From a virus: a stretch of 64,000 nucleotides of DNA. Under the pieces are notes generated by a model. The model made no database searches and was not told the origin of the DNA. It saw nothing but the letters and a program-made list of their open reading frames with translations. Below, piece by piece: positions 4,336 to 62,900 of the stretch. Position 1 is the first letter of the stretch. Every line of letters begins with the position of its first letter. The translations under genes and the position numbers were made by a program. The stretch spans positions 288,001-352,000 of IMG/VR virus record IMGVR_UViG_3300028840_006907. The stretch is one strand, 5' to 3'.

Positions 4336-7320
4336 ATGGCAGAGCAATTAAAAGTTGGATGGGTCGGATATGGGGGTAATAGTTGGATGGCTGAGGATCT
4401 TCGGCCAGTTATAGAAAAGCTAGGAATGACTTTATTCACGATTCATGAACATGATAACGCAGATATTAAATGGGAAAAGGATAACTGGTTCAATCATTTA
4501 AAAAAAGCTGATATAGTTATAGCTCCAGCTAATTATAAAAAACAACCTGCAAAGAGTGCAAATCGATTAATACAATCAATGTCAATGGGTAAACCTGTCA
4601 TATGTTCTCCTTTACCTGCATATTTAGATGTGGCTAAAAAACATCCTGGTTCATTTCTTCTAGCTGATGTCCCGGAAGAATGGGAGGAATGTTTAAAATT
4701 GCTTAGAGATAATCCTTCTTTTCGTAAACAGATGAGTGAGAAGGCTCTAGAAGCTGTTGAAGATTTTTCGATAAATGTCATAGGAAATAAGTGGCTAGAA
4801 TTATTAGAGAAAGATGTACCAATAAAAAAAGATACTGAATCGAATAAAGTTCTTATTACAGATATAATCATACCTACATATAAAAATCTTCGTGGCTTGA
4901 AGTTATGTATTGAGAGTATTCTGGAGTGTACGTTAGTGCCGTACAATATTATAATTGTAAATAATGGAACTGATGAGGAATTGCATAACTATTGTTCTCA
5001 ATTGGTAAATGTAACTTACATAAAAAAAGACAGACTTAATTTTGCCCAAGCCATGAATGTCGGGATTAAAGCAGGTGATTCTGATTTAGTCGTTCTATTA
5101 AATGATGATGTTATTGTCAGTAAAGGATGGCTTATGAATTTGAAATATGCCTGTACTGAAGATGTGGGTGCAGTAGGACCTTTAAGTAATTGTGATAAAT
5201 CCTGGCTCCATAATCATGATATCAATATTGGTGGAGTAGAATTACTGCCTGGTTCAAATACTTTTGAACAAATTGAGCCTATTATTTCTCAGATATATAA
5301 TTATGAATCTCCTTTTTTAGAAGAACCTGAACGAAAATGGGTTGCATTTTATGCTACTTTAATTCCTCGGTCAGTAATAGAAGAAGTAGGTTTTTTAGAT
5401 GAGTCCTTTACAAATTCGGGAGAGGATGTTGATTATTGTAACAGGATTATGAAGTTAGGGTATAAAATAAAACAGACCTATAAAAGTTTTGTATTTCATT
5501 TCGGAGCTGTAAGTAGGAAATTACTGGAGCAGGAAGATAAGGGCACTTATCAGAAAGCTGATGAGGAGACTCAAGAATATTTAAAGATCAAGTATTCAAA
5601 ACCAACAGTAATAATCTATTCCGGTGCCAGTTGGGAGAGATGGAGTTATAAGTCTCTTGAACAGGGGGGTATTGGTGGTAGTGAAGTTTGGCAGATAAAT
5701 GTTTGTCGTGAGTTAAATAAATTGGGTTATAGAGTAATCAGTTTTAATGATTCCCCGGAAAAGGAAATGTGGGAAGATGGGATTCAATATCTTCATTATG
5801 GAGAATTTTCGAAATGGTGTGATGGTAACTATGCCGATTACGCAATTATAAGTAGAACAACCGATCCTTTACATCATCCTTTAAGAGCTGGAAAAATATT
5901 TATAATGGTTCACGATGTCTGGTTACTTTCTGCTAGAGATCAATTATTCCTTGATAAAGTAGATAAATTTTGTGTACTTAGTAAATGGCATTGGGATTTT
6001 TTTAAAGGTCACCATGGAATCCAAGATGAATCAAAATTGGCGTTGACTTCTAATGGGATAGATTTTAATCGTTATGATAACAAAAATATTGAAAGACATC
6101 CTTATAAAATGTTTTACAGTTCTTCCCCGGATCGAGGTCTTGATACACTCCTTTACCTATTTCCCTTTATTAAGGAAAAAATTCCAGAACTTGAACTCCA
6201 TATTTATTATGGATTTAACAATTGGGAAAAGGCAGTGAAGATGAGAAAAAACCAGATTGAGATAGATAGAATGAATAAAATAAAAAAGGATATGGAACAA
6301 CCTGGGGTATTTTATCATGGCCGAGTTGGTCAGAAGGAGCTAGCTGAAGCGCAATTAGAATGTTCTCTTTGGGCCTATCCGACGGATTTTGAAGAAGTTT
6401 TTTGCATCACTGCTATTGAGGCTCAAAGAGCCAGAATCCCTGTATTAGCAACGAATTACGCTGCTTTACAGACAACAGTAGGTGACTCAGGAATTCTAAT
6501 AGGAAATGGCATGAAAGGAGAATCTTATACACGAGATTATCGATTAAAATTTGTAGATGAGTGTATAAAAGTTTTAACAGATAAAGAATATAGAGAACAC
6601 TGGATTGAGAAAGGTTTAAAAAATACGGAGAAATATTCTTGGGAACAAGTGGCTAAAAATTGGAAGAAATTGTTTGAAAAAAGTGATCAAAAAGTAGAAG
6701 CAAAAATTATAGATGAAAAAGAATACAAGAAAGATCGAGTGCTAGTTCATGAAATGAAAATAAGTTCTAATTATATGCCAGATCCTCACAGCCATTTAAA
6801 TAATGAGAGAGATCGTTTTCATTATTATAAAACACTTAATGCTTTCGTTTCATCAAATTCATGTAGTGCATTGGATGTGGGTTGTTTTGATGGGTGGATT
6901 GATTTTCTTCTTATAGAACAAGGATTTAAATTAACTGGAGTTGAGTTGATGGAACCTCTTGTTCAAGCTGCTCGAAAATATGCAGAAGTTAAACAACTTG
7001 ATTATACAATTTATCAGGGTTTTTTTGAAGAGATTGAGATAGACCAGAAATTTGATTTAGTGATATGTTTGGAGACTTTGGAACATATTGATTTAAAACT
7101 TGTCCCTGAGTATATACAAAAAATGAAAAGTCTTGCTACAAAGGGTCTTTTCATATCACTCCCGGATCAGAAACATGAAGATAATACCCAGCATTTATGG
7201 ACACCTACTGAAAATTTAATAAGAAAAATGTGGGGTAATAAAAAGAATTTTTCATTGGAATACCATACTTATCAGGATTCAAATTTACCCGCTAATTGGT
7301 TAATTTATTTCGAAGTGTAG
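4336..7320 (+). CDS. multidomain glycosyltransferase/methyltransferase fusion (GT-B half, GT2, GT4, class I SAM MTase)
   Basis: 994 aa. GT2 block 'IIIPTYKN...IIIVNNGTDEE...LNDDVIVSKGW'. GT4 EX7E-type block 'EVFCITAIEAQRARIPVLATNYAALQTTVGDSGILI'. C-terminal MTase motif I 'ALDVGCFDGW' and post-I 'DLVICLETLEHI'. RBS 'aaggaag'. Confidence 0.85.
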   Translation: MAEQLKVGWVGYGGNSWMAEDLRPVIEKLGMTLFTIHEHDNADIKWEKDNWFNHLKKADIVIAPANYKKQPAKSANRLIQSMSMGKPVICSPLPAYLDVAKKHPGSFLLADVPEEWEECLKLLRDNPSFRKQMSEKALEAVEDFSINVIGNKWLELLEKDVPIKKDTESNKVLITDIIIPTYKNLRGLKLCIESILECTLVPYNIIIVNNGTDEELHNYCSQLVNVTYIKKDRLNFAQAMNVGIKAGDSDLVVLLNDDVIVSKGWLMNLKYACTEDVGAVGPLSNCDKSWLHNHDINIGGVELLPGSNTFEQIEPIISQIYNYESPFLEEPERKWVAFYATLIPRSVIEEVGFLDESFTNSGEDVDYCNRIMKLGYKIKQTYKSFVFHFGAVSRKLLEQEDKGTYQKADEETQEYLKIKYSKPTVIIYSGASWERWSYKSLEQGGIGGSEVWQINVCRELNKLGYRVISFNDSPEKEMWEDGIQYLHYGEFSKWCDGNYADYAIISRTTDPLHHPLRAGKIFIMVHDVWLLSARDQLFLDKVDKFCVLSKWHWDFFKGHHGIQDESKLALTSNGIDFNRYDNKNIERHPYKMFYSSSPDRGLDTLLYLFPFIKEKIPELELHIYYGFNNWEKAVKMRKNQIEIDRMNKIKKDMEQPGVFYHGRVGQKELAEAQLECSLWAYPTDFEEVFCITAIEAQRARIPVLATNYAALQTTVGDSGILIGNGMKGESYTRDYRLKFVDECIKVLTDKEYREHWIEKGLKNTEKYSWEQVAKNWKKLFEKSDQKVEAKIIDEKEYKKDRVLVHEMKISSNYMPDPHSHLNNERDRFHYYKTLNAFVSSNSCSALDVGCFDGWIDFLLIEQGFKLTGVELMEPLVQAARKYAEVKQLDYTIYQGFFEEIEIDQKFDLVICLETLEHIDLKLVPEYIQKMKSLATKGLFISLPDQKHEDNTQHLWTPTENLIRKMWGNKKNFSLEYHTYQDSNLPANWLIYFEV

Positions 7321-8401: not shown

Positions 8402-8693
8402 GTTCATACCATTCTGGCATTGCTTCTTTTTTTGAAAGTTTTCGTTGTACCTTTATAGATGTTTTAGGTTCATTTTTAACATATACTTTGTTATATCCCA
8501 GGGATTCCTGGGGATTTAATTCCATATCATTTGTTATTTCAAAAGAGATACCAGAAAAATCACTCTCTATTCTAACTCTTCTTTTATTATTCTCCTTCGA
8601 TTTTTTAACTGCTCTAAGAAGTTCTCTTAATGTTTTTTCGGTAAGATGTATCGTACTTTTATCGATATTTATATGAGGCATATTCCCACCCAA
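8394..8693 (-). CDS. hypothetical K/E-rich protein
   Basis: The minus-strand ORF has protein-like composition. The overlapping + ORF 8365..8676 is F/L/S-rich like an antisense shadow. Divergent from the 8.7-8.9 kb intergenic region. Confidence 0.35.
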   Translation of the reverse strand: MGGNMPHINIDKSTIHLTEKTLRELLRAVKKSKENNKRRVRIESDFSGISFEITNDMELNPQESLGYNKVYVKNEPKTSIKVQRKLSKKEAMPEWYELK

Positions 8694-13759: not shown

Positions 13760-14415
13760 AAATTATTGCCATTGCACCTCATCCTGATGATGAGACTCTG
13801 GGATGTGGTGGTACACTCTTGAAGCATCGGGATGCCTCAGATGATATTTATTTGGTTCTTGTTACTACAGCAGGTTCTGAATACAGTGAAGAGCATATCA
13901 ATAATAAATACAAAGAAATAGATAATGCCAACGAGATTTTTGAATTTAAGACTATCTTCGATTTGGGTTTCCCTGTTACTCATATTGGTTCTATAGATAT
14001 ATCAGAAATAATTGGTAAACTAATGGACACATTTAAATTAGTGGGTCCCGATATTATTTATGTTCCTTTCCCGTATGATATTCATACTGATCATCAAGTT
14101 GTTTTTGATGCGGTTTCTTCGTGTACAAAATGGTTCAGAATACCTACTTTGAAAAGAATACTAGCCTATGAAACTATATCTGAAACAGATTTTATTATTA
14201 GACCCGGTCCTTCTTTTATCCCTAATGTTTTTGTCAATATTGAAGATCACATTGATAAAAAGATAGAGGCTATGAAATGCTATGCTAGTGAAATTGCTAT
14301 GCCTCCTTTTCCTCGTAGTGAGGAGAATATCAGAGCCCTGGCAACATTAAGAGGTTCAACATCTGGTTTCAAAGCTGCGGAAGCTTTCATGTTGTTAAAG
14401 GAGATAGATGAATGA
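13756..14415 (+). CDS. PIG-L/LmbE family N-acetylglucosaminyl deacetylase
   Basis: 'IIAIAPHPDDETLGCGGTL' is the PIG-L signature. Confidence 0.8.
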   Translation: MKIIAIAPHPDDETLGCGGTLLKHRDASDDIYLVLVTTAGSEYSEEHINNKYKEIDNANEIFEFKTIFDLGFPVTHIGSIDISEIIGKLMDTFKLVGPDIIYVPFPYDIHTDHQVVFDAVSSCTKWFRIPTLKRILAYETISETDFIIRPGPSFIPNVFVNIEDHIDKKIEAMKCYASEIAMPPFPRSEENIRALATLRGSTSGFKAAEAFMLLKEIDE

Positions 14416-15380
14416 GTAAAAAAGTTTTAGTTACTGGTGCAGGAGGATTTATAGGATCTCATTTAGTAAAACGGCTCATGGAATATGGGTATGATGTTAC
14501 AGCACTGGTAAAATATAATGCAAATGGTTCTTGGGGCTGGTTAGACACATTTCATCGTTCTGTAATCAAAGATATTAGAGTAGAGTTGGGTGATGTTCGG
14601 GATCCGGAACAAATGATGAGATATAAAAACATGGATATTATTTTCCATTTAGCTGCTTTGATAGGTATCCCTTATTCCTATGTAGCTCCTCGTTCATATG
14701 TCGATACCAATATAAACGGTACTTTAAACATGCTTCAGGTTTGTCGGGAAAATGGAGCTACTTATATTCATACATCAACTTCTGAGGTATATGGTACAGC
14801 CCTTTATGAACCTATTGATGAAAAACATCCTATCCAAACACAGAGTCCATATTCAGCTACAAAAAGTGCTGGAGATAGTTTAGCAAAGAGTTATTATCTT
14901 TCCTTCGATTTGCCCGTTATTATAGTAAGACCATTCAATACTTTTGGAACACGTCAATCTTTAAGAGCTGTTATTCCCACTATTATCAGTCAGGCATGTA
15001 AAGATGATGTTATAAAACTTGGAGATCCAAGTACCATGAGAGATTTCATTTTTGTGGATGATACTGTAGAAGGCTTTATAAAGGCCGCTGAGAGGGGAAA
15101 ATCTGGAGAGACTTATAATATAGGTTATGGCAAAAAAAGGTCAATAAGAAGTATTGTGGATGACGTAGGCAATATATTAGGTAAAGTTTTAAAAATTGAA
15201 TCGGAACCAGAGAGAATGCGACCTCCGAAGAGTGAGGTAAGAGTTCTTGTTTGTAATAATGAAAAAGCAAAAAAAGAATTGGGATGGGATATTAAATGGC
15301 CTTTTAAAAAAGGGTTGGAATATTTGATCTACGATTGGCAACGAGAAAACAAAGAAAGTAAAGATTTTTATCATGTCTAG
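14412..15380 (+). CDS. NAD-dependent nucleotide-sugar epimerase/4,6-dehydratase (extended SDR)
   Basis: 'VLVTGAGGFIGSHLV'. Catalytic 'YSATKSAGD' (YxxxK). About 320 aa. Confidence 0.85.
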   Translation: MSKKVLVTGAGGFIGSHLVKRLMEYGYDVTALVKYNANGSWGWLDTFHRSVIKDIRVELGDVRDPEQMMRYKNMDIIFHLAALIGIPYSYVAPRSYVDTNINGTLNMLQVCRENGATYIHTSTSEVYGTALYEPIDEKHPIQTQSPYSATKSAGDSLAKSYYLSFDLPVIIVRPFNTFGTRQSLRAVIPTIISQACKDDVIKLGDPSTMRDFIFVDDTVEGFIKAAERGKSGETYNIGYGKKRSIRSIVDDVGNILGKVLKIESEPERMRPPKSEVRVLVCNNEKAKKELGWDIKWPFKKGLEYLIYDWQRENKESKDFYHV

Positions 15381-16449
15381 TATATTTTTACACATACCTC
15401 ATATAGGGGAAGAGGAAAAGGCAGAAGTAAATAAGGCTCTTAATACTGGAGAATTGACCTGTGGAAATTATTTAAATCAATTTGAAAAAGAATTAAGTGA
15501 AAGGATAAATTCTCCTGTTGTTTTATGCTCTTCTGGAACAGCAGCTTTGCAATTAGGTCTACATGCTATGGGTATAGGTCCAGGAGATGAAGTAATTGTT
15601 CCTAATATGTCTTTTGTTTCGACTATAAATTCTGTTTTATATATGGGTGCTACCCCAGTTTTGTGCGATGTAGGTGATCCTGAATACGAGCTTTCCATTG
15701 ATCCTGAAGAAATAATCGATCTCATAACTCCTCGAACTAAAGCTATAATGGTATCTCATCTTTGTGGGGGATACGGTGACATTGAAAAGATATTAGATAT
15801 AGCTAGTGCGTATAAAGTTGATGTCATTGAAGATGCTGCTCAGGCAGTAGGTTGTACTATGAATGGCAAAGCTTTGGGAACATTTGGAAAGTTTGGTGTC
15901 TATTCATTTAATGGGAATAAAATTATCACCACAGGTGGTGGAGGCACTCTTTTAACTTCAGATCGTGGAATGAGTCAGAGAGTACGAAATCTTCTTAATC
16001 AAGCGAAAGACATTTTAAATCCTTTTTCTCATATAGAGATGGGGTATAATTATAGAATCAGTAATATCCATGCTGCGATAGGTTGTGCTCAATTAAAAAA
16101 ATTAGACTCTTTTATTGATAAGAAAAAATTTATTCATGAGACCTATAAAAAGAAGTTAGACATAATAACTTATAAGGAAAAATCCAATTATTGGTTGAAT
16201 GTTTATAAAGTAAAAAAATTTAATCCTTATGAAGCTGTTTGGAATCTGGATTACAAAAGCATAGAGACTCGTCCTATTTATACCCCTTTTCATATGATGG
16301 ATTTTCTTAAAAAATATGGTGAGGATGAATACCCGGTTTCAGAGAAATTATATAACAGTCTTTTTTGTTTGCCATCTTATTTATCTCTTGATGAAGAGAT
16401 AATCGATAAAGTAGTGGATGAAATAAATAATTTGGAGAATAGTGAATGA
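15373..16449 (+). CDS. DegT/DnrJ/EryC1/StrS-family PLP-dependent sugar aminotransferase
   Basis: 'CSSGTAALQLGL'. 'FSFNGNKIITTGGGG' carries the PLP lysine. Typical length. Confidence 0.85.
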   Translation: MSSIFLHIPHIGEEEKAEVNKALNTGELTCGNYLNQFEKELSERINSPVVLCSSGTAALQLGLHAMGIGPGDEVIVPNMSFVSTINSVLYMGATPVLCDVGDPEYELSIDPEEIIDLITPRTKAIMVSHLCGGYGDIEKILDIASAYKVDVIEDAAQAVGCTMNGKALGTFGKFGVYSFNGNKIITTGGGGTLLTSDRGMSQRVRNLLNQAKDILNPFSHIEMGYNYRISNIHAAIGCAQLKKLDSFIDKKKFIHETYKKKLDIITYKEKSNYWLNVYKVKKFNPYEAVWNLDYKSIETRPIYTPFHMMDFLKKYGEDEYPVSEKLYNSLFCLPSYLSLDEEIIDKVVDEINNLENSE

Positions 16450-17141
16450 AAAAACATATCCTTTTGATGTTTAATATGGGAAATAGTGGTGGGAAGTATT
16501 TCGAAGATATTTGTAATACTCACGAAGATGTTCAGATATGGCAAGAAGCAAATCACCTTTTAAAAGTAGATCATCTTGAGACACCAGTTCAGTTCGACAG
16601 GGTATATGCTTTTTTCATGAAACAGTATGAAGAAAATAAGAAAAAAACCATCGGATTAATAAAAGCTTTTGATCATCGGTTAATAGGATTGGCTGAAAGA
16701 ACTGGTGGGTCTATCATGCAGATGTTCAGACATCCTGTAGGTGTGGTGGGTTTTAAGACAGGCCATAAAATGGCTGAGTGTGAACAGAGAGGTTTGTTTG
16801 ACAAACTAGACACACCTGAAAAGATTTTTGAAGCTCATGTGGATTTTTATGCCTCAATATATAATTCCTATACGAAGAATGCTCATAAGTGGCCTGTTGT
16901 TAAATTAGAGGATTTAAAAAAGTCTTTACGGGAAAGAACTCCGTATTTTGAAGATGTAATGAAAAAAGCGCTGAAAGTTGACTGGCAACCGAAACATACA
17001 AAAAAAGTTATTAATATGGGAGGGCTTGAAGAGAATAGAGATCATTTTGATATTTGGAAATCATGGGAAGATTGGAAGAAAGATATTTTTCTGAAGTATT
17101 TCCAGGAAATAATGAAATTGTATATGTATGAATGGGAATGA
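16446..17141 (+). CDS. sulfotransferase-like protein (paralog of 20367..21158)
   Basis: 'NMGNSGGKYF' is a 5'-PSB-like Gly-rich loop. 'MFRHPVGVVGF' is 3'-PB-like. The C-terminus 'IWKSWEDWKKDIFLKYFQEIM' is shared with the paralog. Confidence 0.4.
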   Translation: MKKHILLMFNMGNSGGKYFEDICNTHEDVQIWQEANHLLKVDHLETPVQFDRVYAFFMKQYEENKKKTIGLIKAFDHRLIGLAERTGGSIMQMFRHPVGVVGFKTGHKMAECEQRGLFDKLDTPEKIFEAHVDFYASIYNSYTKNAHKWPVVKLEDLKKSLRERTPYFEDVMKKALKVDWQPKHTKKVINMGGLEENRDHFDIWKSWEDWKKDIFLKYFQEIMKLYMYEWE

Positions 17142-24661: not shown

Positions 24662-25480
24662 ATGAACCTTCTTCAGAGAGTAAAAAAATATTGGGATGAT
24701 AGACCCTGTAATATACGCCATTCAAAGGAACCCGTTGGAACCAGAAATTATTTCAATGAGGTTGAATATAAAAAATATAAAGTTGAACCGCATATATCAG
24801 GTTTCGCTGATTTTAATAAATGGAAGGATAAAAAGGTCCTTGAGATAGGCTGTGGGCTGGGCACTGAGACTATAAATTTTGCTAGAGCTGGTGCTAGGGT
24901 TGTCGCTGTGGATATGTCTGAGAAATCTTTGGAGCTGGCTAAGAAACGAGCGGAAGTTTTTGGCTTGTCCGATAAGATTACATTTTATCAGGGAAATGCT
25001 GAAGAACTTGATAAATTTATCCCAGCTCAGAAATTTGATCTTATCTGGTCTTTTGGTGTTATTCATCATACCCCGAATCCTGAGAACGTTATTGAATGTA
25101 TCAAGAAGTACCTGTCTCCAAGCAGTGAATTACGAATGATGGTTTATAATAAATTTAGTTGGAAAGTATTCTGGATCCTTTTTAAGTACGGGAAGTTTAA
25201 GTTTTGGGATATTGATAAATTCATAGCTCAAAATTCAGAAGCTCAGACCGGGTGCCCAATCACCTACACTTATACAAATAAATCAGTTCAAAAATTACTA
25301 AAAGGGTTTGTAATCGATAATATTAAAATTGAGCATATTTTTCCTTATAAAATTCGTGAATATAAGGAGAATAAATTCAAATTTATCTGGTATTTTAGAT
25401 ACCTGCCCAAATGGTTTTTTCATTGGTTAGAAAAGAGAATCGGTTGGCATATGTGCATAATCGCCAGATGGAGAATTTAG
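24662..25480 (+). CDS. class I SAM-dependent methyltransferase
   Basis: Motif I 'VLEIGCGLGTETINFARAGARVVAVDMS'. Post-I 'DLIWSFGVIHH'. Confidence 0.8.
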   Translation: MNLLQRVKKYWDDRPCNIRHSKEPVGTRNYFNEVEYKKYKVEPHISGFADFNKWKDKKVLEIGCGLGTETINFARAGARVVAVDMSEKSLELAKKRAEVFGLSDKITFYQGNAEELDKFIPAQKFDLIWSFGVIHHTPNPENVIECIKKYLSPSSELRMMVYNKFSWKVFWILFKYGKFKFWDIDKFIAQNSEAQTGCPITYTYTNKSVQKLLKGFVIDNIKIEHIFPYKIREYKENKFKFIWYFRYLPKWFFHWLEKRIGWHMCIIARWRI

Positions 25481-25567
25481 GGGTGGCCAGCCCCGCGTAG
25501 GCGGGGAAAAGGGATACGATAAGAAAAAATCTGCTCTGTGGAACAGCCCCACGAAAGTGGGGAATAA
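25481..25567 (-). repeat. two CRISPR-repeat-like GC hairpin units (orphan mini-array or repeat-derived bidirectional terminator)
   Basis: Minus-strand reads 'TTATTCCCCACTTTCGTGGGGCTGTTCCA' and 'TTCCCCGCCTACGCGGGGCTGGCCACC', 57 nt apart. Both match the 51.4 kb array repeat ATATTCCCCGCGTATGCGGGGCTG. Lies between convergent genes. Confidence 0.5.
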
Positions 25568-25631
25568 TGCCACCCATTTTAAAAGATAGTATTGGGTGGT
25601 CTTTTAAATCAACTCTAAATTTTCCAGGAGT

Positions 25632-26096
25632 TTACAACCAGTCATCTTCTTTTCGGATAGATATTTTAGATAAAGTATCATTGTTAAGAAAAAGAGTTAC
25701 AATATAACGAACCCATTGATCATCATAATACCCAAATTCTTGTATTTCACTATTATCTGGAAATGAATCTACTATAACACTAGGTCCATAAACTTTCAGG
25801 ATTTTTCTTTTTGACATTCCAATCTTTAAATTTTGAAATTTACCTTCTTTAATTTCGATGTTATATAATCGGTGAGCAAAGATGTAACAAACCATATTCG
25901 GATAGTGCATATAAAGATCACTTTTAATAGTATCAATTTTTATAGGTTCTCCGAATTTTTCTATAACATCTTTAACAGTAAGGTCTTTTCGAAGATCGAA
26001 ATCAGGTCCGAATGGGAAGACACCGCAACTGTCGATTGAACGACTGAAGCATAAACTTACAAAAAGTATGATTGATATTAAAGTTTTCATATTCAC
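25632..26096 (-). CDS. secreted hypothetical protein
   Basis: N-terminal signal-peptide-like 'MNMKTLISIILFVSLCFSRS'. Confidence 0.5.
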   Translation of the reverse strand: MNMKTLISIILFVSLCFSRSIDSCGVFPFGPDFDLRKDLTVKDVIEKFGEPIKIDTIKSDLYMHYPNMVCYIFAHRLYNIEIKEGKFQNLKIGMSKRKILKVYGPSVIVDSFPDNSEIQEFGYYDDQWVRYIVTLFLNNDTLSKISIRKEDDWL

Positions 26097-49949: not shown

Positions 49950-50816
49950 ATGGACAAAAAATATGAAGACCGAATGCTTGTCGTTTTTATCTTAGTGGGT
50001 CTAGTTGGTGGGTCACTGTTCTATTTCCTTAAAGATGGTCAGCCTCTCAGCTCAATTTTCATGACTTTCGCTCTATCAAGTATCCTCTATCGATTCCTGG
50101 GTGGAATTGGCCAAGGCACAAAATTCAGTGTCGGAGCATTTCGGTTAGGTGGTAGTGCAGCCTTCATGATCGGCTGTATCTTTTTTATCAACGAGTACAT
50201 TTTCCCAAAACCAGAAATCAACACCATTGTTTTAAGTACTCCCCAGGATCGATGGGTTCCTGTTAAATACCCTACAGGTGAGTATGTGAATGTTAAGGTA
50301 TTAACTCCTTCTGGAGATACTATTATTCATGGTATAAGTAGTGTAGAAATGGATGCTTTAAAAAAAAGGGAATACTGCATCACAAAAGAAGGGGAGAATT
50401 TTTATATCTGTTCTAATGCTGATTCAACGGTAATAGGCCATCTTAAGTTTGAAGATGTTTTTAAAGCTATTGAAAATGATATCCATATCACAGTCCAAGA
50501 TTTTCGGGTTTTTAAATTATACCCTAATCCTATAAATGACCCAAAAGATCAAGAAAAGAAATATAAAACTACTGATTCACTTGATGCTGTAAGTCAGACT
50601 TTTCCCATAGTAATCGAAGTCGATAAAACTAATATGAATATAAAGACAAAGGATGACAGTTTATTAACATCAGATGTACCTCGTAGTGAAAAATTCTATT
50701 TAGTTGATATTGAAAATGAGTATTTTATAGTTACAATATTACATGCTAATTTAGAAACATCAGAAAGTAAATGGTATTCTGAGTTTCTTGTTGGAAAAGT
50801 ATCTATTAATCGATAG
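49950..50816 (+). CDS. membrane protein
   Basis: RBS 'aaaaggagg'. Three N-terminal hydrophobic helices. Confidence 0.5.
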   Translation: MDKKYEDRMLVVFILVGLVGGSLFYFLKDGQPLSSIFMTFALSSILYRFLGGIGQGTKFSVGAFRLGGSAAFMIGCIFFINEYIFPKPEINTIVLSTPQDRWVPVKYPTGEYVNVKVLTPSGDTIIHGISSVEMDALKKREYCITKEGENFYICSNADSTVIGHLKFEDVFKAIENDIHITVQDFRVFKLYPNPINDPKDQEKKYKTTDSLDAVSQTFPIVIEVDKTNMNIKTKDDSLLTSDVPRSEKFYLVDIENEYFIVTILHANLETSESKWYSEFLVGKVSINR

Positions 50817-51252
50817 AGGTAATATGAGCAATATGAAAATTGCAATAGCTTCTTATATGCGTTATACAGTTGTTTTAGCCAACTTGAAAGAGCATTTCAA
50901 AAGAGAACTCGATCTAGCTGGCCTATTTGATAAAGACTCCGATTATAATGGAATGATAGGTAACGCTGTTATGGACCTGTGTAAAGTCTTCTCTGATCAG
51001 GGCCATAGCGGGTTCTCCGCGAACTGGGTTCTGAAATTGTTCGATACTCTTGGTCACTATAAAACGTTGACTCCTATTACAGATAATCCGAAAGAGTGGA
51101 TGAAGGTTACAGATGGCCTCGGTAGAGATGAACCGGTCTGGCAGAGTAATCGAAATCCTTCCCTTTTTTCTAATAATGGTGGAAAGAGTTATTATGATGT
51201 AGACGATAAGAAGCGTAAGAAGATCCGCTCTAAAAAGTTTAAAAAGAAATAA
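50788..51252 (+). CDS. hypothetical protein with basic tail
   Basis: ORF. Probable start at the internal Met (MSNMKIAIAS, about 50824). Ends 'KRKKIRSKKFKKK'. Confidence 0.45.
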   Translation: MLEKYLLIDRGNMSNMKIAIASYMRYTVVLANLKEHFKRELDLAGLFDKDSDYNGMIGNAVMDLCKVFSDQGHSGFSANWVLKLFDTLGHYKTLTPITDNPKEWMKVTDGLGRDEPVWQSNRNPSLFSNNGGKSYYDVDDKKRKKIRSKKFKKK

Positions 51253-51414
51253 TTTTTCTGAATAAATCAGGTTTTTTTCTTATTCTTTCGATAATTTCTC
51301 TTCTCTTTTTTCTCATAATTTATTATAATTATATATAGTATCTATAGCTCTTTGAAATTGGTAGAAATTTACTGAATCCGTAAGCCCTTGATCTTATGAT
51401 ATTTATGTTTTAGT
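51253..51414 (+). promoter_or_regulatory. CRISPR leader (AT-rich) with candidate promoter
   Basis: 162-bp AT-rich non-coding stretch directly 5' of the first repeat. 'ttgatc'-17 nt-'tagtat' at 51389..51416. Confidence 0.4.
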
Positions 51415-52317
51415 ATATTCCCCGCGTATGCGGGGCTGGGCCGATAAATCTTAAAATGGGTAAGATAAAAACCTGAATATTCCCCGCCCATGCGGGGCTG
51501 ATGCGTAATATAAATAATTTTTGATCAATTATAGGACATATTCCCCGCCCCTGCGGGGATTCCCCGAAAATATTGATGTTTTTTTGTATATATCAAAAAT
51601 ATTCCCCGCCCCTGCGGGGTTGATGCGAATACCGAACAAGTGCAGGGCCTGCAGATTATATATTCCCCGCGTATGCGGGGCTGGCGCGTAGGAGGTAAAA
51701 ATGAAATCGAAACATATTCCCCGCGTATGCGGGGCTGGTTCTAGAATTGAATGAAGCGCTGAATTTTCCCCGCCCATGCGGGGCTGAACCGACCGGGAAA
51801 TCATATCTATCCATAAATCTTGCATATTCCCCGCGTATGCGGGGCTGAACCGATACTAGATTGGGACATGTGTTTACCCAGAACATATTCCCCGCCCATG
51901 CGGGGCTGAACCGATTTCAAAAAACACGACCAGATAAAGATGAATATTCCCCGCGTATGCGGGGCTGTGTCAGGGTGAGAGGCTCGTGACGAATAATTTT
52001 TCATATTCCCCGACTCTTCGGGGTTGCCCCTCAGGAAGCTATTGAATTGCAAAAAACTGTATTCCCCGTCTATGCGGGGCTGTCTCTCCACATGCAAATG
52101 TAAGTAGTAAATACTGAATATTCCCCGGCATTCCGGGGCTGATCCCGTCTGGTAAAAACATAAAATGGTTCATCATAAGTATTCCCCGCCCATGCGAGGT
52201 TGGGCCATCCAGTACTGCTACTGCTAGGACCGTATTCCCCGCCCATGCGGGGCTGATCCTACGACTGGGACAGAAGTATTCATTGGTTTCACCCCGGCCT
52301 TTCCGGGGTCTAAAATA
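51415..52317 (+). CRISPR. CRISPR array, 16 repeats, type I-E-like 29-nt repeat ATATTCCCCGCGTATGCGGGGCTGAACCG, no cas genes in the window
   Basis: Repeat starts at 51415, 51477, 51538, 51599, 51660, 51714, 51763, 51824, 51885, 51944, 52003, 52059, 52118, 52179, 52232 and 52289. Periodicity is mostly 61 bp (29+32). Repeats share TTCCCCGCG...GCGGGG and the AACCG tail with the E. coli I-E repeat. Distal repeats are progressively degenerate. Spacers are unique and AT-rich. Confidence 0.8.
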
Positions 52318-52355
52318 AGGATCTGAGATTTTTTTCTTAGATCCTTATATTTTTA
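52317..52355 (+). terminator. hairpin terminator at distal end of array
   Basis: Stem 'aaggatctgag'/'cttagatcctt' with a T-rich loop, followed by 'tatattttt'. Confidence 0.45.
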
Positions 52356-52409: not shown

Positions 52410-53315
52410 ATGGCAATTGCGTTTATGAGAGGAAGCACCACTAATCAGAATGATTTGACCATAACGGTACGTGATACATCCAATAATTTGATCGACCCGT
52501 ATTCGTTGGAGTATGCTGTCTTCGATTACACTAGTGGCACTGAGGTCCTCATCGGATCCCCTGTTAATACTCCGCTCAAGTTGTCAACAGGAGAATATTG
52601 GGCGGAGGTTGTAATAGCAGCCGATGCCAATATAGGTCTCTGGCGCATCCGTTGGACAATTCAAGAAACAGCAGTCAGTCCTGTTTATCAATCGGTTCAG
52701 GAATTTCAAGTAGTAGGTTCCAGTGTTGTGACGAGTGTAACCGGAGATGCAAATTTTGATGCATTGGTCCATTCTTTACGAGTGATACTCCGAGACAACA
52801 ATCCGGACCGCAACTACAGATTTCGTCCCCCAGCTTCCGAGAAATTTATCCAAGGTCAGACCCAAGTCTTTGGATTCATTTGGGAAGATGAAGAGCTTGT
52901 AGAGTATATATACATGGCTATTGACGACTTCAATTCACGCCCCCCGACTACAGGTATAGATGTGGCCAATCTTTGGGGAACTGAGAGACGGTGGAGAACT
53001 ACAATTATTTTAAGAGCAGCAGCTTTTGCATGTTTCGCTATAACAATGAATTGGATCGCTGACGAATTTTCTTATTCAATTTCTGGAGTATCTCTTGACA
53101 TTGAGAAATCTTCGAAGTATCAATCTATGAAAGAGAATTATATCAATGAATATGACAAGCTTGTCGAGGCCAATAAGAGATCCATAAAAATTATAAAAGG
53201 TCTTAGGCAATATCGGTACGGGGTGGGCATCACGAGCGCCCTGGGACCCATGAACAGACCTGGAGTTCAAAGTAGAAGAAACCTTATAAGTCCAAGTTAT
53301 GGCCCTTATTTCTAA
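52410..53315 (+). CDS. hypothetical protein (compositionally GC-richer than neighbours)
   Basis: RBS 'aaaggaaa'. 301 aa. No Cas-like motif. Confidence 0.5.
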   Translation: MAIAFMRGSTTNQNDLTITVRDTSNNLIDPYSLEYAVFDYTSGTEVLIGSPVNTPLKLSTGEYWAEVVIAADANIGLWRIRWTIQETAVSPVYQSVQEFQVVGSSVVTSVTGDANFDALVHSLRVILRDNNPDRNYRFRPPASEKFIQGQTQVFGFIWEDEELVEYIYMAIDDFNSRPPTTGIDVANLWGTERRWRTTIILRAAAFACFAITMNWIADEFSYSISGVSLDIEKSSKYQSMKENYINEYDKLVEANKRSIKIIKGLRQYRYGVGITSALGPMNRPGVQSRRNLISPSYGPYF

Positions 53316-53408: not shown

Positions 53409-55916
53409 TTATATTTTATTATTTTTTCTAAGGAGAGCTATCTGACGTTTAATCCATCGAGGAGTTTCTTCAAGAGTTTCAGCCATTTGATTTCTTGTCA
53501 TCTTTCCACGATTATCTATTATGAATTGGAGCTTTTCTTCAGTCTTTCTATCTTTGGTACAACCAATAGGGTTTTTTGTAGATAATGTACCTTTTTTTTG
53601 TAAGAATTTTATTTGAGATTTAACCCATCGCTCTGTTTCATTGAGAGCTTTAGATAATTCTTTTTTAGTTTTATTTTTATAATTAGTGATTATATACTGC
53701 GTTTTTTCAGGGGTTCTTCTACATTTTGTTGAGAATTTAGAAATCTCTTTTAAATAGGTAAATTTCTCAGTGGGTTGTTTAATATTTATATCTTCAATAC
53801 ATTTTGAATTATATATTTCTTTTTCTCTTTTAGGATAAGGTTTAGTAACATAATTTTTTAATTTGTTAATTTTTTTCTTATCTCTTTTATTTTCACCTAT
53901 TAATAAGACATATTTATGTTTTCTTTCAGTAATAAATTTTTGAGCTTCAGATAATATATTTTTATTCCAATTATTCCATTGAACTTTAATTCCTTCTGGT
54001 ATGGTACTCATATTTTTAAAACCATTTTCTTTAAACCATTCCTTTTGAGAAATAATCCCTTGATTTTTACACCATTTTTTAAATGCTGATGTACGTTTTA
54101 GAGATTGAGCTGAAAAAGTCCTATTATTTTTAATGGAAGGATGTTTATATAAGTATGAACTTCCAAAGTTATTTCCTAGATAATCAAATCCACAAGCTTG
54201 GTAAATAGTCCCTATTTCAAGAGCTTTAGGATCAGCATAACCTATGAAAGCTCTTTTAGAAGTGTTATTAGCCATCCAATTACAAGCAAACCTTATAAGA
54301 CGGCTACCCAGGTTTTTCGGGGTCCATGAGGCAGTGGCACCTCTTTGAATTAAAGCTTCATATTTGGGAGTATCTTTACCTAGAATTTTGGAATATGCTG
54401 TGGGTTCATTTATAAATAATACTCCTGCGAGAATATTATTGTATCTGGCTGTGAAGCACCATTTTGGTATTACTCCAATTGTTCCTAACCATTCATATTT
54501 TTTTATAAATTGGACCATTTCATTATTAAATTTTTCTTCAGATAATGTAAAAGAAGTAGCTTTTAAAGAAGAGTGATTGAAATCGATATTTTTTTTATCT
54601 TCATCAATCCATTGAAGTTTCTTTTTATATTGGTGGCATATAAAAGTGGTCTTGTTTTTACTGTTAATTTTATTTTTTATTAAATCAATGATAATACCTT
54701 TTCGGATAGCTTCTTTTACATCATCAGACCAAAATCTAATCAAATTGGGTATATTTTTATTTTGGATTTCATCATTCTTAATATTTTCTTTTATTTTTAA
54801 TGCCCTTGGAGACGTATCATTTTCTCTTATTTCTTTACCATGCCAATAATTACCATCATATTGTACCCATAAGTTATAGCGAGGCATATAGAAATCAATT
54901 ACATGTTTAATAATTGGGTGCATAACTTGATGTTCTACAAAAGGATCAAATACAATAAGATAATTAAAAAAGTTATTTTCTTCATCTGAGGATGAGAAGG
55001 AATTATTTAGTTTAACTGTTTTATATGTTTTTTCTTTTATTTCAACATTCTGTTGGGGATTTTCAACGCCATATCTTTCAATATTAGTTTCAGTGATTTT
55101 TTTCTTAATCTCTGGAGATTGGAATACATTGTCAACCCCGTATCTTGATTGTACTGTTACTTTAACTTTTCTTTTTACTTCTTTAGATTGAGAGGGGTAT
55201 TCTACTCCTCGTTTTTCAATATTAGATTGACGGGATTTTTCTTTCATTGAGTTTAGTTGAGTAGAATATTCTACGCCATAACGTTTTTTAATAGTTTCGT
55301 TATTATGTTTAACTATATCTTCATTTATTTTATCTCGATTCCTTCTTAATCCTAGTTTAATAGCTCTTTCTCGGATGGCTTTCCAGGTCCTGTTTTCAAA
55401 GTAGAGCATAATAAATTCCATAGAATTCTTTTCATATACTTCTTTTAAAAGATCATCTTCTTTGGGTGACCAGAAGTCTTCCCTAGCAGGAGCGCTTTTA
55501 CCACCATCAATCATTTCTTGTTTAATTATTTCAGGATTTCTTTGAAGGTTTAATTTTTGAGCATTACTTCGGATGCTTTGCCATGATCGATTCTTGAATT
55601 TAGAAAGGATAAATTCTTTTGAATTATTTTCATATATATTTTTAAGAATATTTATCTCTTCGGTTGTCCAGGAATCTTTTCTTGGTCCTCTTTTTTTACG
55701 GTCTTCATTTATAAGGTCAGGATTACGGTGAAGATTTAGCTTACGTGCTTTTCTACAGATGGTTGTCCAAGATTTATTTAATTTGGAGATAATAAATTCT
55801 TTTGAATTATTTTTATATATTTCTTTTAATAAATTTTCTTCTTCTATTTTCCAACGCATATGAGTACCTCTTTTTAGTATATTACTTATTATAACAGGTA
55901 TTAGAGTTATTGTCAA
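53409..55916 (-). CDS. multidomain HTH-repeat protein with Vsr/PD-(D/E)xK-like endonuclease motif
   Basis: Likely start at Met 55859 (MRWKIEEE). Three about 45-aa 'W[ST]xEExxxLKxxYxxNSxEFI...RxWxxIRxxAxKLxLxRN' repeats. Four 'RYGVE(N/Y)PxQ' repeats. 'YDGNYWHGK' Vsr-like motif. C-terminal about 400 aa uncharacterised, with two more HTH-like repeats. Confidence 0.6.
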   Translation of the reverse strand: MTITLIPVIISNILKRGTHMRWKIEEENLLKEIYKNNSKEFIISKLNKSWTTICRKARKLNLHRNPDLINEDRKKRGPRKDSWTTEEINILKNIYENNSKEFILSKFKNRSWQSIRSNAQKLNLQRNPEIIKQEMIDGGKSAPAREDFWSPKEDDLLKEVYEKNSMEFIMLYFENRTWKAIRERAIKLGLRRNRDKINEDIVKHNNETIKKRYGVEYSTQLNSMKEKSRQSNIEKRGVEYPSQSKEVKRKVKVTVQSRYGVDNVFQSPEIKKKITETNIERYGVENPQQNVEIKEKTYKTVKLNNSFSSSDEENNFFNYLIVFDPFVEHQVMHPIIKHVIDFYMPRYNLWVQYDGNYWHGKEIRENDTSPRALKIKENIKNDEIQNKNIPNLIRFWSDDVKEAIRKGIIIDLIKNKINSKNKTTFICHQYKKKLQWIDEDKKNIDFNHSSLKATSFTLSEEKFNNEMVQFIKKYEWLGTIGVIPKWCFTARYNNILAGVLFINEPTAYSKILGKDTPKYEALIQRGATASWTPKNLGSRLIRFACNWMANNTSKRAFIGYADPKALEIGTIYQACGFDYLGNNFGSSYLYKHPSIKNNRTFSAQSLKRTSAFKKWCKNQGIISQKEWFKENGFKNMSTIPEGIKVQWNNWNKNILSEAQKFITERKHKYVLLIGENKRDKKKINKLKNYVTKPYPKREKEIYNSKCIEDINIKQPTEKFTYLKEISKFSTKCRRTPEKTQYIITNYKNKTKKELSKALNETERWVKSQIKFLQKKGTLSTKNPIGCTKDRKTEEKLQFIIDNRGKMTRNQMAETLEETPRWIKRQIALLRKNNKI

Positions 55917-59978: not shown

Positions 59979-62900
59979 ATGGCTCAAGTAGAAAGAAAAT
60001 GGATCCAGGACCAAGCAATTTCCAATGAAAAAGTAGATCCCACTGATATTTATACCATTACAGGTTTAAGAGTTGATGAAACCAATGCCATTGGGAGAGT
60101 AGGAATAGGTTTATCTAGCCCTTTGGATGCTCTTCATATTCAACGAACTGATTCTTCTTCTGGAATGATGCTGGATCTTAGTGATGGTACAAATGGTAAA
60201 CTTTATAAGATATATTCAGGAGCTAATGGTTTACTGAATTTTACTGATGCTACAGATGGGGGCATATTCACCTATGGTGAATCAGGTTCGATAGGTCGAG
60301 TTGGTATCAATACCGCATCTATCCAAGATCACCTTCATGTAAGTTCCCCTTTAACAGATGCTGCGTTAAGACTTGATTTAGATGATGGACTCAATGGTCG
60401 AGCTTATCGTCTTGTCTCAGATACAGATGGAGCTTTTAGGATAATTGATGTTGATGCGGGTAATGTAAATAGACTTCAGATTGCTAATACAGGAACTTTA
60501 ACTGTCTCAGGTGATGCAACTTTTGATAGTAATTTTCAAATTAATGGTACTGTTACAGTTATTAATACTGAAATTGTCATTGCAGATCAATTAGAAATAA
60601 ATCAAACTGACAATCAGGCAGCATTGATAGTAAGTCAAGATACAGGTGGTGCTACAGCCACTGTAATGAGAATTGAAAATGCTGGCACAGGCCATGCTTT
60701 AACCGTAGATTCTGGTAATGTAGGTATTGGTACTTTAACTCCGGCTGCTCCTCTTCATGTTCAAGGTGATATAATTACTGCCAATGGGTATAATATCGGA
60801 GACACCACTCATAGAATTGGTACTCTTTGGATGGCTTCTACTGTAGATTATTTGACTGACCTTAATTTTAGTTCAGGTGGAACAAATGTTACTTTTGCAA
60901 CCGGTGGAAATGTCGGGATAGGTTCTGGTACTCCTACCCAGGCCCTGGATGTGGTTGGAACTATAGAAAATACAGGTGATATCATAACAACTGGTTCTTA
61001 TCCTTCCGGTTTAATAAGAGGAGCTTATTTAACGATAACTACTGGAAATTCGACTTTCCAAGGAAGAGTGGGAATTGGTGTTACAAGTCCGTCTTATCCT
61101 CTTCATGTTGGTGGAGACATTTATTCCAATACAGGTAATATTGTAGCCACTGCTGGAACTGTGACAGGTGGATCTGGTTTAATAGCTACTACAGGTGGTG
61201 TTATAGCCTCTGCTGGAAATATAACAGCGACCTTGGGTGATCTCATCGCTTCTGCGGGTTCTGTAACTGCTAATACAAATGTAACTGCTACGAATGGAAA
61301 TATAGTTGCTTCTAATGGAAATATTTCTGCTACGAATGGTACAGTAACAGGAGGCACCGGTTTAATAGCTACCACAGGGGGTGTGACCGCTACGAATGGA
61401 AATATAGTTGCTTCTAATGGAAATATTTCTGCTACGAATGGTACAGTAACAGGAGGCACCGGTTTAATAGCTACCACAGGGGGTGTGACCGCTTTAGCTG
61501 GTAATATCTCTGCTTCGGCTGGTTCTGTAACTGCTAATACTAATATAACAGCCACGAATGGTAATATTGTTGCTTCTAATGGAAATATTTCTGCTACAAA
61601 TGGTACGGTAACAGGAGGCACCGGTTTAATAGCGACTACAGGTGGTGTAACCGCTACGGCTGGAAATATCACTGCTTCAAATGGTAGTTTTGTCGCTCCA
61701 AATGGAATTGTAAGTGTAGGTTTTGGCGTTATAGCAGCAGGGGGTGATATATTTGCCCAAACGGGTAAAGTAGGAATTTCAACCAGTTCTATTGCAGGAG
61801 GTTATGTATTACATGTTCAAGGAAACGCTTATTGTTCAGGTCAAGTAGATACAAATACTTTGGATGTAGGTAGTGGCAGTTTTACTGTAAGTGCAATTGG
61901 TGCAACAAATATCGGACCAGGCTGGTTAACTTTCGGTCAACATATGTCTGGTGGAGGACAGATTGGATCTGCTTCTACCGTAAATATTGTTTCAACCAGT
62001 GGTGCAACTATGTCAGGAGGTTCAGGCGCTGTCTCAATTACTACTAATAACAGTGGTACGCCAAGTGCGATTAATGTGACCTCTGGAAATAACACCGGAT
62101 CAGGAGTTGGTGGAGCACTCAATCTGAATGCAGGTGATTCGGGAGGAGCTGGTACAGGTGGTGCAGTAACTATTACTGGAGGAACGGCTTCAGGTGGTGG
62201 ATCTACAGGAGGAGACATTTTGCTGCTTCCTGGAAGTGCTGTCTCAAATGGGCGCGTTGAGGTAGGCACAGGTGCCTCTTCGAAAAATTTATGGGTTTCA
62301 GGTAGTGTAACTATAGAAGGAGCTAATTCTGCTTTTGCTCTTTCGATTAATAATACGAATTATGTAGGAGCTTATTGTGCAATAGCAGGAGCATCAACGG
62401 TAGCTGGCTGGTTTGAAAATAGTGGTTCAGATTCAACATCTATGTTTGTGCAACAATTAAATACTGGTAAAGGGCTTTTCGCTACTGGATTAGGATTAAA
62501 TTCTTTTGCAGGATTTTTCCAAAGTACGGGCTATACAACTCTTAGGTCAGAAGTGAGTGGTACTGGAGGTGGTGATTATGCTGTACATGCAATATGTACA
62601 AATGCTGGATCGAGTGCCACTTCAGCAGCAGTTTTTGCTCAAAATTGGGGAGGTGGAAAAGCTATTCAGGCAACCGCAGGAACTGGAACTACTATTCAAG
62701 GGTCAAACACTAATGGTACTGCTATTTATGGGTCTCAAGCAGGAACCTCTGGTAGAGCAGGACGTTTTAGGTGTAATGCTGGATCTTATGCATACAATGC
62801 TGTTGAGGTAGAAGTGACTTCAGGTACAGGAGCTTCAAAAGGGATCTTAGTTAATTATACCGGTTCTGGTAATGCTATAGAAGTAAACGGTGGTAGTGGC

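Follow-up and report, generated by a model that had tools for sequence, protein, structure and literature searches.

Virus-borne mini-arrays, solitary repeat units and anti-CRISPR RNAs that resemble CRISPR RNAs (crRNAs; CRISPR, clusters of regularly interspaced short palindromic repeats) have been described before (PMC10651486; bioRxiv 10.1101/2024.10.29.618823; 10.1101/2023.03.03.530964). Solitary repeat units, which Faure et al. were the first to list (2019, cited through PMC10651486), serve phages as RNA anti-CRISPRs (Racrs), with two type I-E examples, RacrIE1 and RacrIE2 (Camara-Wilpert et al., 2023, PMC10651486); SRUFinder drops any candidate for which another repeat-like match lies no farther than 100 bp away (PMC10651486). 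The type I-E Cracr arrays of prophages have degenerate repeats (ψR) and spacer-like segments (ψS) of 24 and 21 nucleotides (nt), and a Cracr is defined by a ψS that matches the host CreR or CreA and its cas-promoter target over at least nine nt proximal to the protospacer-adjacent motif (PAM; bioRxiv 10.1101/2024.10.29.618823). Mini-arrays with one highly divergent repeat are found at ∼19% of bacterial type I-E loci (Shmakov et al., 2023, bioRxiv 10.1101/2023.03.03.530964), and virus-borne mini-CRISPR arrays take part in inter-viral conflict (Medvedeva et al., 2019, PMC6858448; also Faure et al., 2019, as cited in PMC10651486 and 10.1101/2023.03.03.530964). Here we describe a two-unit, type I-E-like element in 64,000 nt of viral DNA (positions 288,001 to 352,000 of IMG/VR record IMGVR_UViG_3300028840_006907; hereafter the window, to which all coordinates refer unless another locus is named), where it lies between the convergent genes for a methyltransferase and a 154-aa protein. 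With a probability of about 0.5, we read it as a virus-borne ψR-ψS-ψR mini-array whose RNA engages a type I-E Cas6e or Cascade, as a decoy or as a regulatory crRNA-like RNA.

The principle is not new, since earlier work has described mini-arrays borne by viruses, solitary repeats and regulators that resemble crRNAs. By analogy, the element appears closest, in function and layout, to the viral crRNA-like RNAs (crlRNAs, or Cracr) and to the Racrs. Like a Cracr it is phage-borne, with no cas gene within 64 kb, and consists of two degenerate I-E-like ψR around a ψS shorter than 32 nt (27 nt in the window and 25 nt in a diverged relative, L124, vs. 24 and 21 nt in the described CracrIE); the same phage also carries a larger multi-unit array with irregular, short spacers. 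The Cracr layout is therefore present, being a ψR-ψS-ψR on a mobile element, outside a cas locus and with a short ψS. The differences are that no match of the defining kind was found for the ψS in L114 and L117, the only related cas loci found, and that the window element is in the 3′ untranslated region (UTR) position of a structural or secreted-protein gene and not beside acr genes. With the Racrs, whose RNA binds cognate Cas proteins (Cas6, Cas7) and weakens CRISPR immunity, it shares being an intergenic, cas-less repeat copy on a phage, with the hairpin and flanks kept; the repeat part is conserved and the adjoining sequence is not, which fits a decoy. Racrs, however, are solitary by definition, whereas the units in the window are paired at 56 nt, so the element falls outside the strict definition; in addition, it has no promoter immediately upstream and only ∼70–79% identity to its presumed cognate repeat.

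Two further kinds of mini-array resemble it less. Like the inter-viral mini-arrays, the element has two repeats and one spacer without cas genes, and would rely on Cas proteins supplied in trans, but its spacer is short, its repeats are degenerate, and a near-perfect protospacer in another virus was absent from the databases searched. The order ψR-ψS-ψR with diverged repeats is also that of host CreR-type mini-arrays (an example is found upstream of cas3 in L114), but those are inside cas loci and target a nearby promoter beside a canonical PAM, whereas the window element is on a phage, far from cas genes and with no detectable target. Two traits are somewhat unusual: it has a 3′-UTR position between convergent non-defense genes in the genome of a huge phage, and it is conserved in a relative that has diverged deeply.

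Layout of the Element

The element occupies a 151-nt intergenic gap between the stop codons of the methyltransferase gene (at 25480) and of the 154-aa gene (at 25632), which is where the original prediction had placed it. Read on the minus strand, the gap holds an AT-loop hairpin (25599..25570), unit A, a 28-nt segment and unit B, directly downstream of the 154-aa gene and on the same strand. Unit A (ψR1; 25567..25540, minus strand) reads TTATTCCCCACTTTCGTGGGGCTGTTCC, with the stem CCCCAC/GTGGGG and the loop TTTC; the spacer-like ψS (25539..25512, minus strand) reads ACAGAGCAGATTTTTTCTTATCGTATCC; and unit B (ψR2; 25511..25484, minus strand) reads CTTTTCCCCGCCTACGCGGGGCTGGCCA, with the stem CCCCGC/GCGGGG and the loop CTAC. 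Re-reading of the DNA bore out the minus-strand arrangement first proposed (unit, 28-nt spacer, unit), together with its strings and coordinates. The frame ATTCCCC...GGGGCTG that had been ascribed to both units needs one correction, namely that unit B starts with TTTTCCCC instead of ATTCCCC. The ψS becomes 27 nt when the repeat is taken as 29 nt, which is below the 32–33 nt regular for type I-E.

The units are compared below with the main array of the window, a type I-E array of 15 units on the plus strand (leader at 51351-51414, units at 51415-52260; consensus ATATTCCCCGCGTATGCGGGGCTGAACCG), which starts 25.8 kb from units A and B and is on the opposite strand. Units A and B are in direct orientation with 56 nt from start to start, and the spacings of the main array are 49–62 nt. 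They are alike at 22 of 29 positions, and either is like the array repeats at 20–23 of 29. Both fold into a 6-bp stem with a 4-nt loop (−10.5 kcal/mol for unit A and −11.7 kcal/mol for unit B), the same geometry as the array repeat. The 3′ part of unit A, CTGTTCC(A), is a candidate 8-nt 5′ handle of a crRNA-like product.

Look-ups with exact proteins placed the window on JGI contig Ga0180437_10000019 (388,651 bp), and found the same proteins on 7 contigs; the source is a huge phage (388 kb). Two other contigs that were read over 42410-63315 equal the window base for base, save for one mismatch each. The element was found again in the stretch read from the source contig, and several samples contributed the 7 contigs on which the 154-aa protein is recorded; the element is no artifact of assembly.

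Membership in the Type I-E Repeat Family

The window contains 16 occurrences of the pattern TTCCCC-N6-12-GGGG, where 0.44 would be expected, and these are 14 of the 15 array units plus units A and B; the remaining array unit carries a G-to-A change in its 3′ arm, and is hence outside the count. A covariance model (R1) was built from 22 distinct array repeats of the window and related loci, with units A and B left out, and all 64 kb were scanned with the filters off. The 15 array units scored 36–48 bits, followed by unit B (24.7 bits, E value 9e-6) and unit A (22.7 bits, E value 5e-5), and nothing else in the window reached E < 3. The matches to the units (25539-25567 for unit A, and 25483-25511 for unit B) span the full length and are confined to the minus strand; on the plus strand, the best match has 11.4 bits. 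This strand call rests on the flanks (TT before CCCC, and CTG after GGGG) and on the loop, since the stem is its own reverse complement and is uninformative. Both units thus have the parts that define the I-E repeat family: the 5′ flank, the 6-bp GC stem, the 4-nt loop and the 8-nt 3′ handle. As a whole the element is not a canonical CRISPR array: its repeats are diverged, its spacer is 27–28 nt long, and there is no leader homology upstream. Rfam held nothing relevant for units A and B or for the main array.

A scan for perfect stems with 6 bp or more, including five or more G-C pairs, gave 17 in the window: 13 array units, one degenerate hairpin just past the array, units A and B, and one at 8497-8512. 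Unrelated GC hairpins at other convergent gene ends would, according to the original prediction, have spoken for a generic terminator family; instead, 16 of the 17 are linked to the array or are units A and B themselves. The search for further repeat copies that it had proposed, carried out over the 64 kb, returned none outside the array and the two units.

Conservation in Related Loci

Relatives were collected as syntenic loci from the homologues of the 154-aa protein, seven of them independent. In L124 and L125 the flanking proteins are 70–74% identical to those of the window, and the same convergent pair of genes encloses a gap of 117 nt, in which two units share the strand of the 151-aa gene (ATTTTCCCCTGCCTTAGCGGGGATGACCCT and ATTTCCCCCGTTTTTCACGGGGCTGTTCCT in L124, 55 nt from start to start, with R1 scores of 19.4 and 16.9 bits). 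Third-codon identity between the window and L124 at conserved four-fold-type residues is 32%, which is random, that is, saturated; despite this saturation, TTxCCCC, the 6-bp stems, GGGGxTG, the spacing, the strand and the slot are all kept. Both stems show two-sided changes: hairpin 1 is CCCCAC/GTGGGG in the window vs. CCCUGC/GCGGGG in L124 (an A-T pair replaced by G-C), and hairpin 2 is CCCCGC/GCGGGG vs. CCCCGT/ACGGGG (C-G replaced by T-A). All four units have a 6-bp stem and a 4–5-nt loop, at −9.6 to −11.7 kcal/mol. The intervening segments are unrelated in sequence (27 nt in the window vs. 25 nt in L124, with the repeat counted as 29 nt).

Five other relatives lack the element. In L123, L135, and L136 (61–66% identical) the slot is only 18–37 nt long and contains no hairpin, and in L122 and L129 it is filled by unrelated small open reading frames; the element is therefore accessory. 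The seventh, L126 (57% identical in the protein), has another neighborhood with no convergent methyltransferase downstream, and is uninformative for the slot. On this comparison, the element seems to be maintained by selection on its repeat-like parts and their arrangement, and not on the “spacer.” Three options had been put forward at the outset: a two-repeat orphan array, a remnant of array rearrangement, and repeat-derived hairpins co-opted as a terminator. The orphan array fits best, because the R1 matches are orientation-specific and a two-unit element is present in the slot of a diverged relative; the remnant option has been weakened, and the terminator option is poorly supported.

The terminator option says that CRISPR-derived GC hairpins were co-opted as terminators, or as blocks to 3′ exonucleases, for both converging transcripts, with no involvement of Cas proteins. 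The element does lie exactly between the stop codons of convergent genes, its two hairpins are stable (−10.5 and −11.7 kcal/mol), and similar GC hairpins are plain terminators in other genomes, Escherichia phage PaulSarasin being one example. Downstream of unit A on the minus strand there are a small hairpin and AUUUUUUCUU, and on the plus strand TCTTTT follows a third hairpin (25570-25599). The small hairpin (25521..25546, minus strand; CTGTTCCACAGAGCAG, then ATTTTTTCTT) takes in the last part of unit A and the first part of the ψS; it was found by a consensus terminator scan of the region that gave two sites vs. 1.2 expected from shuffles, and it is the sole terminator-like signal inside the element. 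The third is the AT-loop hairpin, CCACCCA-N16-TGGGTGG, which was seen in minimum free energy (MFE) folds at 25570..25599 with no strand assigned, between the 154-aa gene and unit A; from the sequence that follows it on the plus strand (TCTTTTAAAT), it is a possible terminator of the methyltransferase operon. Units A and B themselves, however, do not have the form of an intrinsic bidirectional terminator (a GC stem with a direct U run and a preceding A run): the sequences that follow are CTGTTCC (minus strand) and AATAATG (plus strand) for unit A, and CTGGCCA (minus) and AAAAGGG (plus) for unit B, with no direct T run in any case. Moreover, the same genes in L123, L135, and L136 have no hairpin between them; the hairpin with the U run has no counterpart in L124; the strand-specific flanks (TTCCCC and GGGGCTG) and the ∼55-nt spacing, unneeded by a terminator, are kept there; and no other gene end in the 64 kb has such GC hairpins, save for the array, the post-array hairpin and the hairpin at 8497. 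We regard this explanation as unlikely.

The intergenic region is also bracketed by inverted repeats, which would suit a role at the DNA level, either as a mobile insertion with inverted repeats or as a substrate for recombination (a 26-kb inversion, or exchange with CRISPR arrays). The outer pair was seen as a 13-bp outer stem in the plus-strand fold; its left arm (GGAGAATTTAGGG; 25470..25482, no strand) overlaps the final codons and the stop of the methyltransferase gene, its right arm (CTCTAAATTTTCC; 25614-25626, no strand) is 11/13 identical in pairing with it, and together they enclose the whole intergenic element. Also in keeping with such a role, three relatives have an empty slot and two have something else in it, and the orientation of the units is opposite to that of the array 25.8 kb away. 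Against it, there is no second copy of the element or of the terminal repeats in the 64 kb; the left arm is coding sequence of the methyltransferase, and this coding sequence has kept its length in L123; a target-site duplication is not to be seen; and the alternative orientation appears in none of the contigs at hand, of which the other two that were read cover 42410-63315. We therefore consider a DNA-level role very improbable.

Nested within the outer pair is an inner one, GGGTGGC/GCCACCC (25571-25577 and 25482-25488): in predicted folds, the GGGTGG arm of the AT-loop hairpin alternatively pairs with GCCACCC at 25482-25488, closing a stem around both units. The MFE folds of the two strands have z scores of −3.7 and −4.3. 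The nested inverted repeats could be the closing helix of a structured RNA, or chance. A long-range closing stem around both units was not retained as a candidate: its counterpart in L124 is weak, with many G-U pairs, and the L124 fold is no better than those of shuffles (z −0.9).

The Main Array and Related cas Loci

Eight spacers of the main array start with G, and six of these are 33 nt long, as expected of type I-E acquisitions; the remaining spacers are 21–31 nt, and the lengths overall span 21–34 nt. Conservation among the array units is 95–97% in the 5′ flank and stem and ∼70% in the 3′ handle, with positions 25–27 at only 33–60%; stem variants, in units 11 and 13, are compensatory. A sponge for Cas6e, or an array of the Cracr type, would match this pattern of erosion better than an array that works in immunity. 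Past the last unit come one more hairpin, the 16th, which is degenerate (52291-52309), and, at about 52312-52345, a hairpin that resembles a terminator and has a T run.

A metagenome scan found three contigs of 33% GC (L114, L116, and L117) with the array repeat GTATTCCCCGCACACGCGGGGCTGAACCG. In L114 and L117 the array adjoins cas3-cse1-cse2-cas6e-cas7-cas5, without cas1 or cas2; the Cas6e of L117 has 199 aa and is encoded at 4655-5254. The leader of the window array (51351-51414) aligns with L114 625-690 (minus strand), L117 7025-7089, and L116 3461-3525, in an alignment that takes in the stop region of cas5 (AAATTGGTAGA) and a variant first repeat, CTGG.CCG; this makes the phage array a homologue of one that belongs to a genuine type I-E interference module. 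From this homology, it looks as if the phage array was captured from, or left behind by, a cas1/2-less I-E locus. Cas7 of L117 has no relative above 40% identity besides its own partial copy. A search for a Cas7 of the phage's own, by way of the L117 Cas7 homologues, gave none on a contig as long as those of the phage; the single match on a large contig (375,777 bp) was rejected, being from a bacterial metagenome-assembled genome (MAG) of 55% GC with a different repeat.

Just upstream of cas3 in L114 (7814-7908, minus strand) there is a two-unit mini-array, made up of TTCTTCCCCACGTATGCGGGGTGTTTCC, 32 nt, and GTCTTCCCCGCACACGCGGGAGTGTTTCT, which by its layout looks like a CreR-type regulator; no target of its spacer was found in L114. 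Unit A has its closest relative in the first unit of this mini-array, with 23 of 29 positions shared. In the main array, the first 12 nt of spacer 13 (52146-52178, with the repeat counted as 29 nt), GTCTGGTAAAAA, equal the first codons of L117 cas5 (6339); by a rough count ∼0.1–0.3 such matches are expected by chance over all spacers, and we take this as a lead only.

The closest pattern of the array repeat is absent from IMG/VR, and GTDB representative genomes gave mostly high-GC I-E arrays, the nearest low-GC array being in a Gammaproteobacteria MAG (L027, 38% GC) on a contig without the cas side. Broad pattern scans of IMG/VR gave mostly chance single matches and a few solitary I-E-like hairpins, and no paired element in any AT-rich phage. 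Another huge phage, of 381 kb and 52% GC (L131, IMGVR_UViG_3300014204_013734) has two solitary I-E-like units (83-111 and 2936-2964), 2.85 kb apart and scoring ∼29 bits each with R1. A bacterial MAG of 55% GC (L130, GCA_040767085.1) has a complete I-E locus at 13821-16490 in the same unusual order, with cas6e before cas7; a HEAT-repeat gene is inserted, and the long array has very irregular repeat spacing, possibly an assembly artifact or real decay.

The eroded state of the main array, with its variable 3′ ends and spacer lengths, bears on one more explanation, that the two units are a non-functional relic, a fragment of array dropped by recombination or rearrangement and slowly decaying. The degeneracy of the units and their short spacer, for which neither a target nor a promoter was found, point the same way. 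On the other side, both perfect 6-bp stems are kept in L124 through two-sided changes although the synonymous sites of the flanking genes are saturated, and the element is present on the source contig, whose DNA was read at the slot, with the flanking 154-aa protein on 7 contigs from several samples. We find a relic improbable.

Target and Promoter Searches

The segment between the units had been proposed as a spacer to be compared with phage sequences, and this comparison left it without a match (50,697 phage records, and IMG/VR). When the ψS and all 14 spacers of the main array were compared with the window, ∼130 fetched loci, the phage records and IMG/VR, only self matches and chance seeds were returned. 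For the ψS there was no exact 22-nt core in IMG/VR, and no match in the ∼130 loci. Its best seeds in L114 and L117, which are the only related I-E loci found (the host's own may differ), are 8–10 nt long, with non-canonical flanks and at chance frequency. Three candidates were set aside: a 20/28 match of the ψS to 25328-25355, a level reached by 28 of 300 shuffles and hence chance; a seed-8 match over the start of L114 cas3, at chance frequency and with a non-canonical flank; and a 27-nt match to Escherichia phages, which is an ordinary terminator hairpin.

Several of our results weigh against an RNA that engages Cas6e or Cascade. The ψS has no protospacer in the window, L114/L117, the 50,697 phage records or IMG/VR, although the phage records and IMG/VR are incomplete for this environment and a target could still exist. 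On the minus strand just upstream of the element there is no promoter above the scan threshold, and the terminator-like hairpin with its U run within the ψS could end transcription ahead of unit B. The 3′ part of unit B, CTGGCCAC, lacks CC at handle positions 6–7. The window has no cas homologue within its 64 kb, and the genes that adjoin the element have no anti-defense role. The conservation comes from one independent relative, L124 and L125 being identical over the 191 bases read from each, and similarity is slightly higher crosswise (unit A with L124 unit 2, and unit B with L124 unit 1) than by position; given these two points, the element may have been inserted independently at the same site in the window and L124 lineages.

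The Phage Genome and Flanking Genes

The window has a GC content of 33% and is crowded with short, co-oriented genes. The gene to the left of the element (24662..25480, plus strand) encodes a class I methyltransferase dependent on S-adenosylmethionine (SAM; Pfam E value 3e-23), and is the last of a long plus-strand cluster for sugar and methyl transfer. The gene to the right (25632..26096, minus strand) encodes the 154-aa protein, which has a hydrophobic N-terminus and 10 homologues, all metagenomic, with no relative in IMG/VR. Among the IMG/VR relatives of the methyltransferase and of a 301-aa structural protein (85 loci), no such hairpins or arrays were found; over 100 relatives of the 301-aa protein (52410-53315) are found on IMG/VR contigs, whose lengths reach 450 kb.

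A homologue of Tad3, the inhibitor of type I Thoeris (50788-51252; Pfam E value 5e-33), ends 163 nt upstream of repeat 1 of the main array, which indicates that the phage carries counter-defense genes. Positions 1-29545 hold a gene cluster of just under 30 kb, with glycosyltransferases, many methyltransferases, sulfotransferase-like proteins, one radical-SAM enzyme, and subunits of thiamine pyrophosphate-dependent (E1/transketolase-like) enzymes, a large sugar-modification set for a phage; it includes a fusion protein of 994 aa (4336-7320) with GT2, GT1, and methyltransferase domains. The window also encodes a Mom-family protein, and on the minus strand at 53409-55916 there is a protein of 835 aa with repeated N-terminal motifs and with DUF7487 and Mom-family domains. 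A protein of 1228 aa is encoded on the plus strand at 59979-63665, with tandem repeats of 102 nt and 81 nt at 61134-61735.

Proposed Mechanism and Significance

Type I-E Cas6e binds the hairpin of the repeat and cuts at its 3′ base, which leaves an 8-nt 5′ handle and a 21-nt 3′ hairpin. We infer that the element in the window would be handled in the same way and would in this manner affect immunity. It would be transcribed from the minus strand, most simply as a 3′ extension of the mRNA of the 154-aa gene, and each unit would then form a hairpin of 6 bp with a 4-nt loop, of the kind that Cas6e recognizes. A type I-E Cas6e, either from the host or from a cas1/2-less I-E module like that of L114 and L117, would bind these hairpins and cut at their 3′ base, and the product would be a crRNA-like RNA of 56 nt, consisting of the handle CUGUUCCA, a 27-nt guide and the 21-nt hairpin CUUUUCCCCGCCUACGCGGGG.

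A decoy for Cas proteins (Racr-like), or a non-cleaving crRNA-like regulator (crlRNA- or “Cracr”-like), is more likely than a guide for interference against a rival phage, because the repeats are degenerate, the guide is 5 nt short of the canonical length, and the hairpins and flanks are conserved while the guide is not. A wider proposal, which we put forward only tentatively and hold to be rather doubtful as a whole, is that the units are part of an RNA counter-defense of the phage against type I-E systems: Cas6e would be captured on the tail of an mRNA, the short-guide RNA would titrate Cascade or direct a shortened, non-cleaving Cascade to silence a host defense promoter, and the 15-unit array next to Tad3 would be a multiplexed version, with hairpins conserved and handles eroded. 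If this were true, the source would be a huge phage with several layers of RNA-based anti-CRISPR weapons, which would trace back to the capture of a cas1/2-less I-E locus.

The element is a testable candidate for RNA-based interplay with type I-E CRISPR-Cas, since the Cas6e and Cascade genes of L117 and the RNAs of the units can be synthesized. If it is active, the counter-defense by repeat-mimicking RNAs (Racr and Cracr) would extend to an uncultured lineage of AT-rich phages of 388 kb, and such an element would reside in the 3′ UTR of a gene instead of an anti-defense island, held there by selection across deep divergence.

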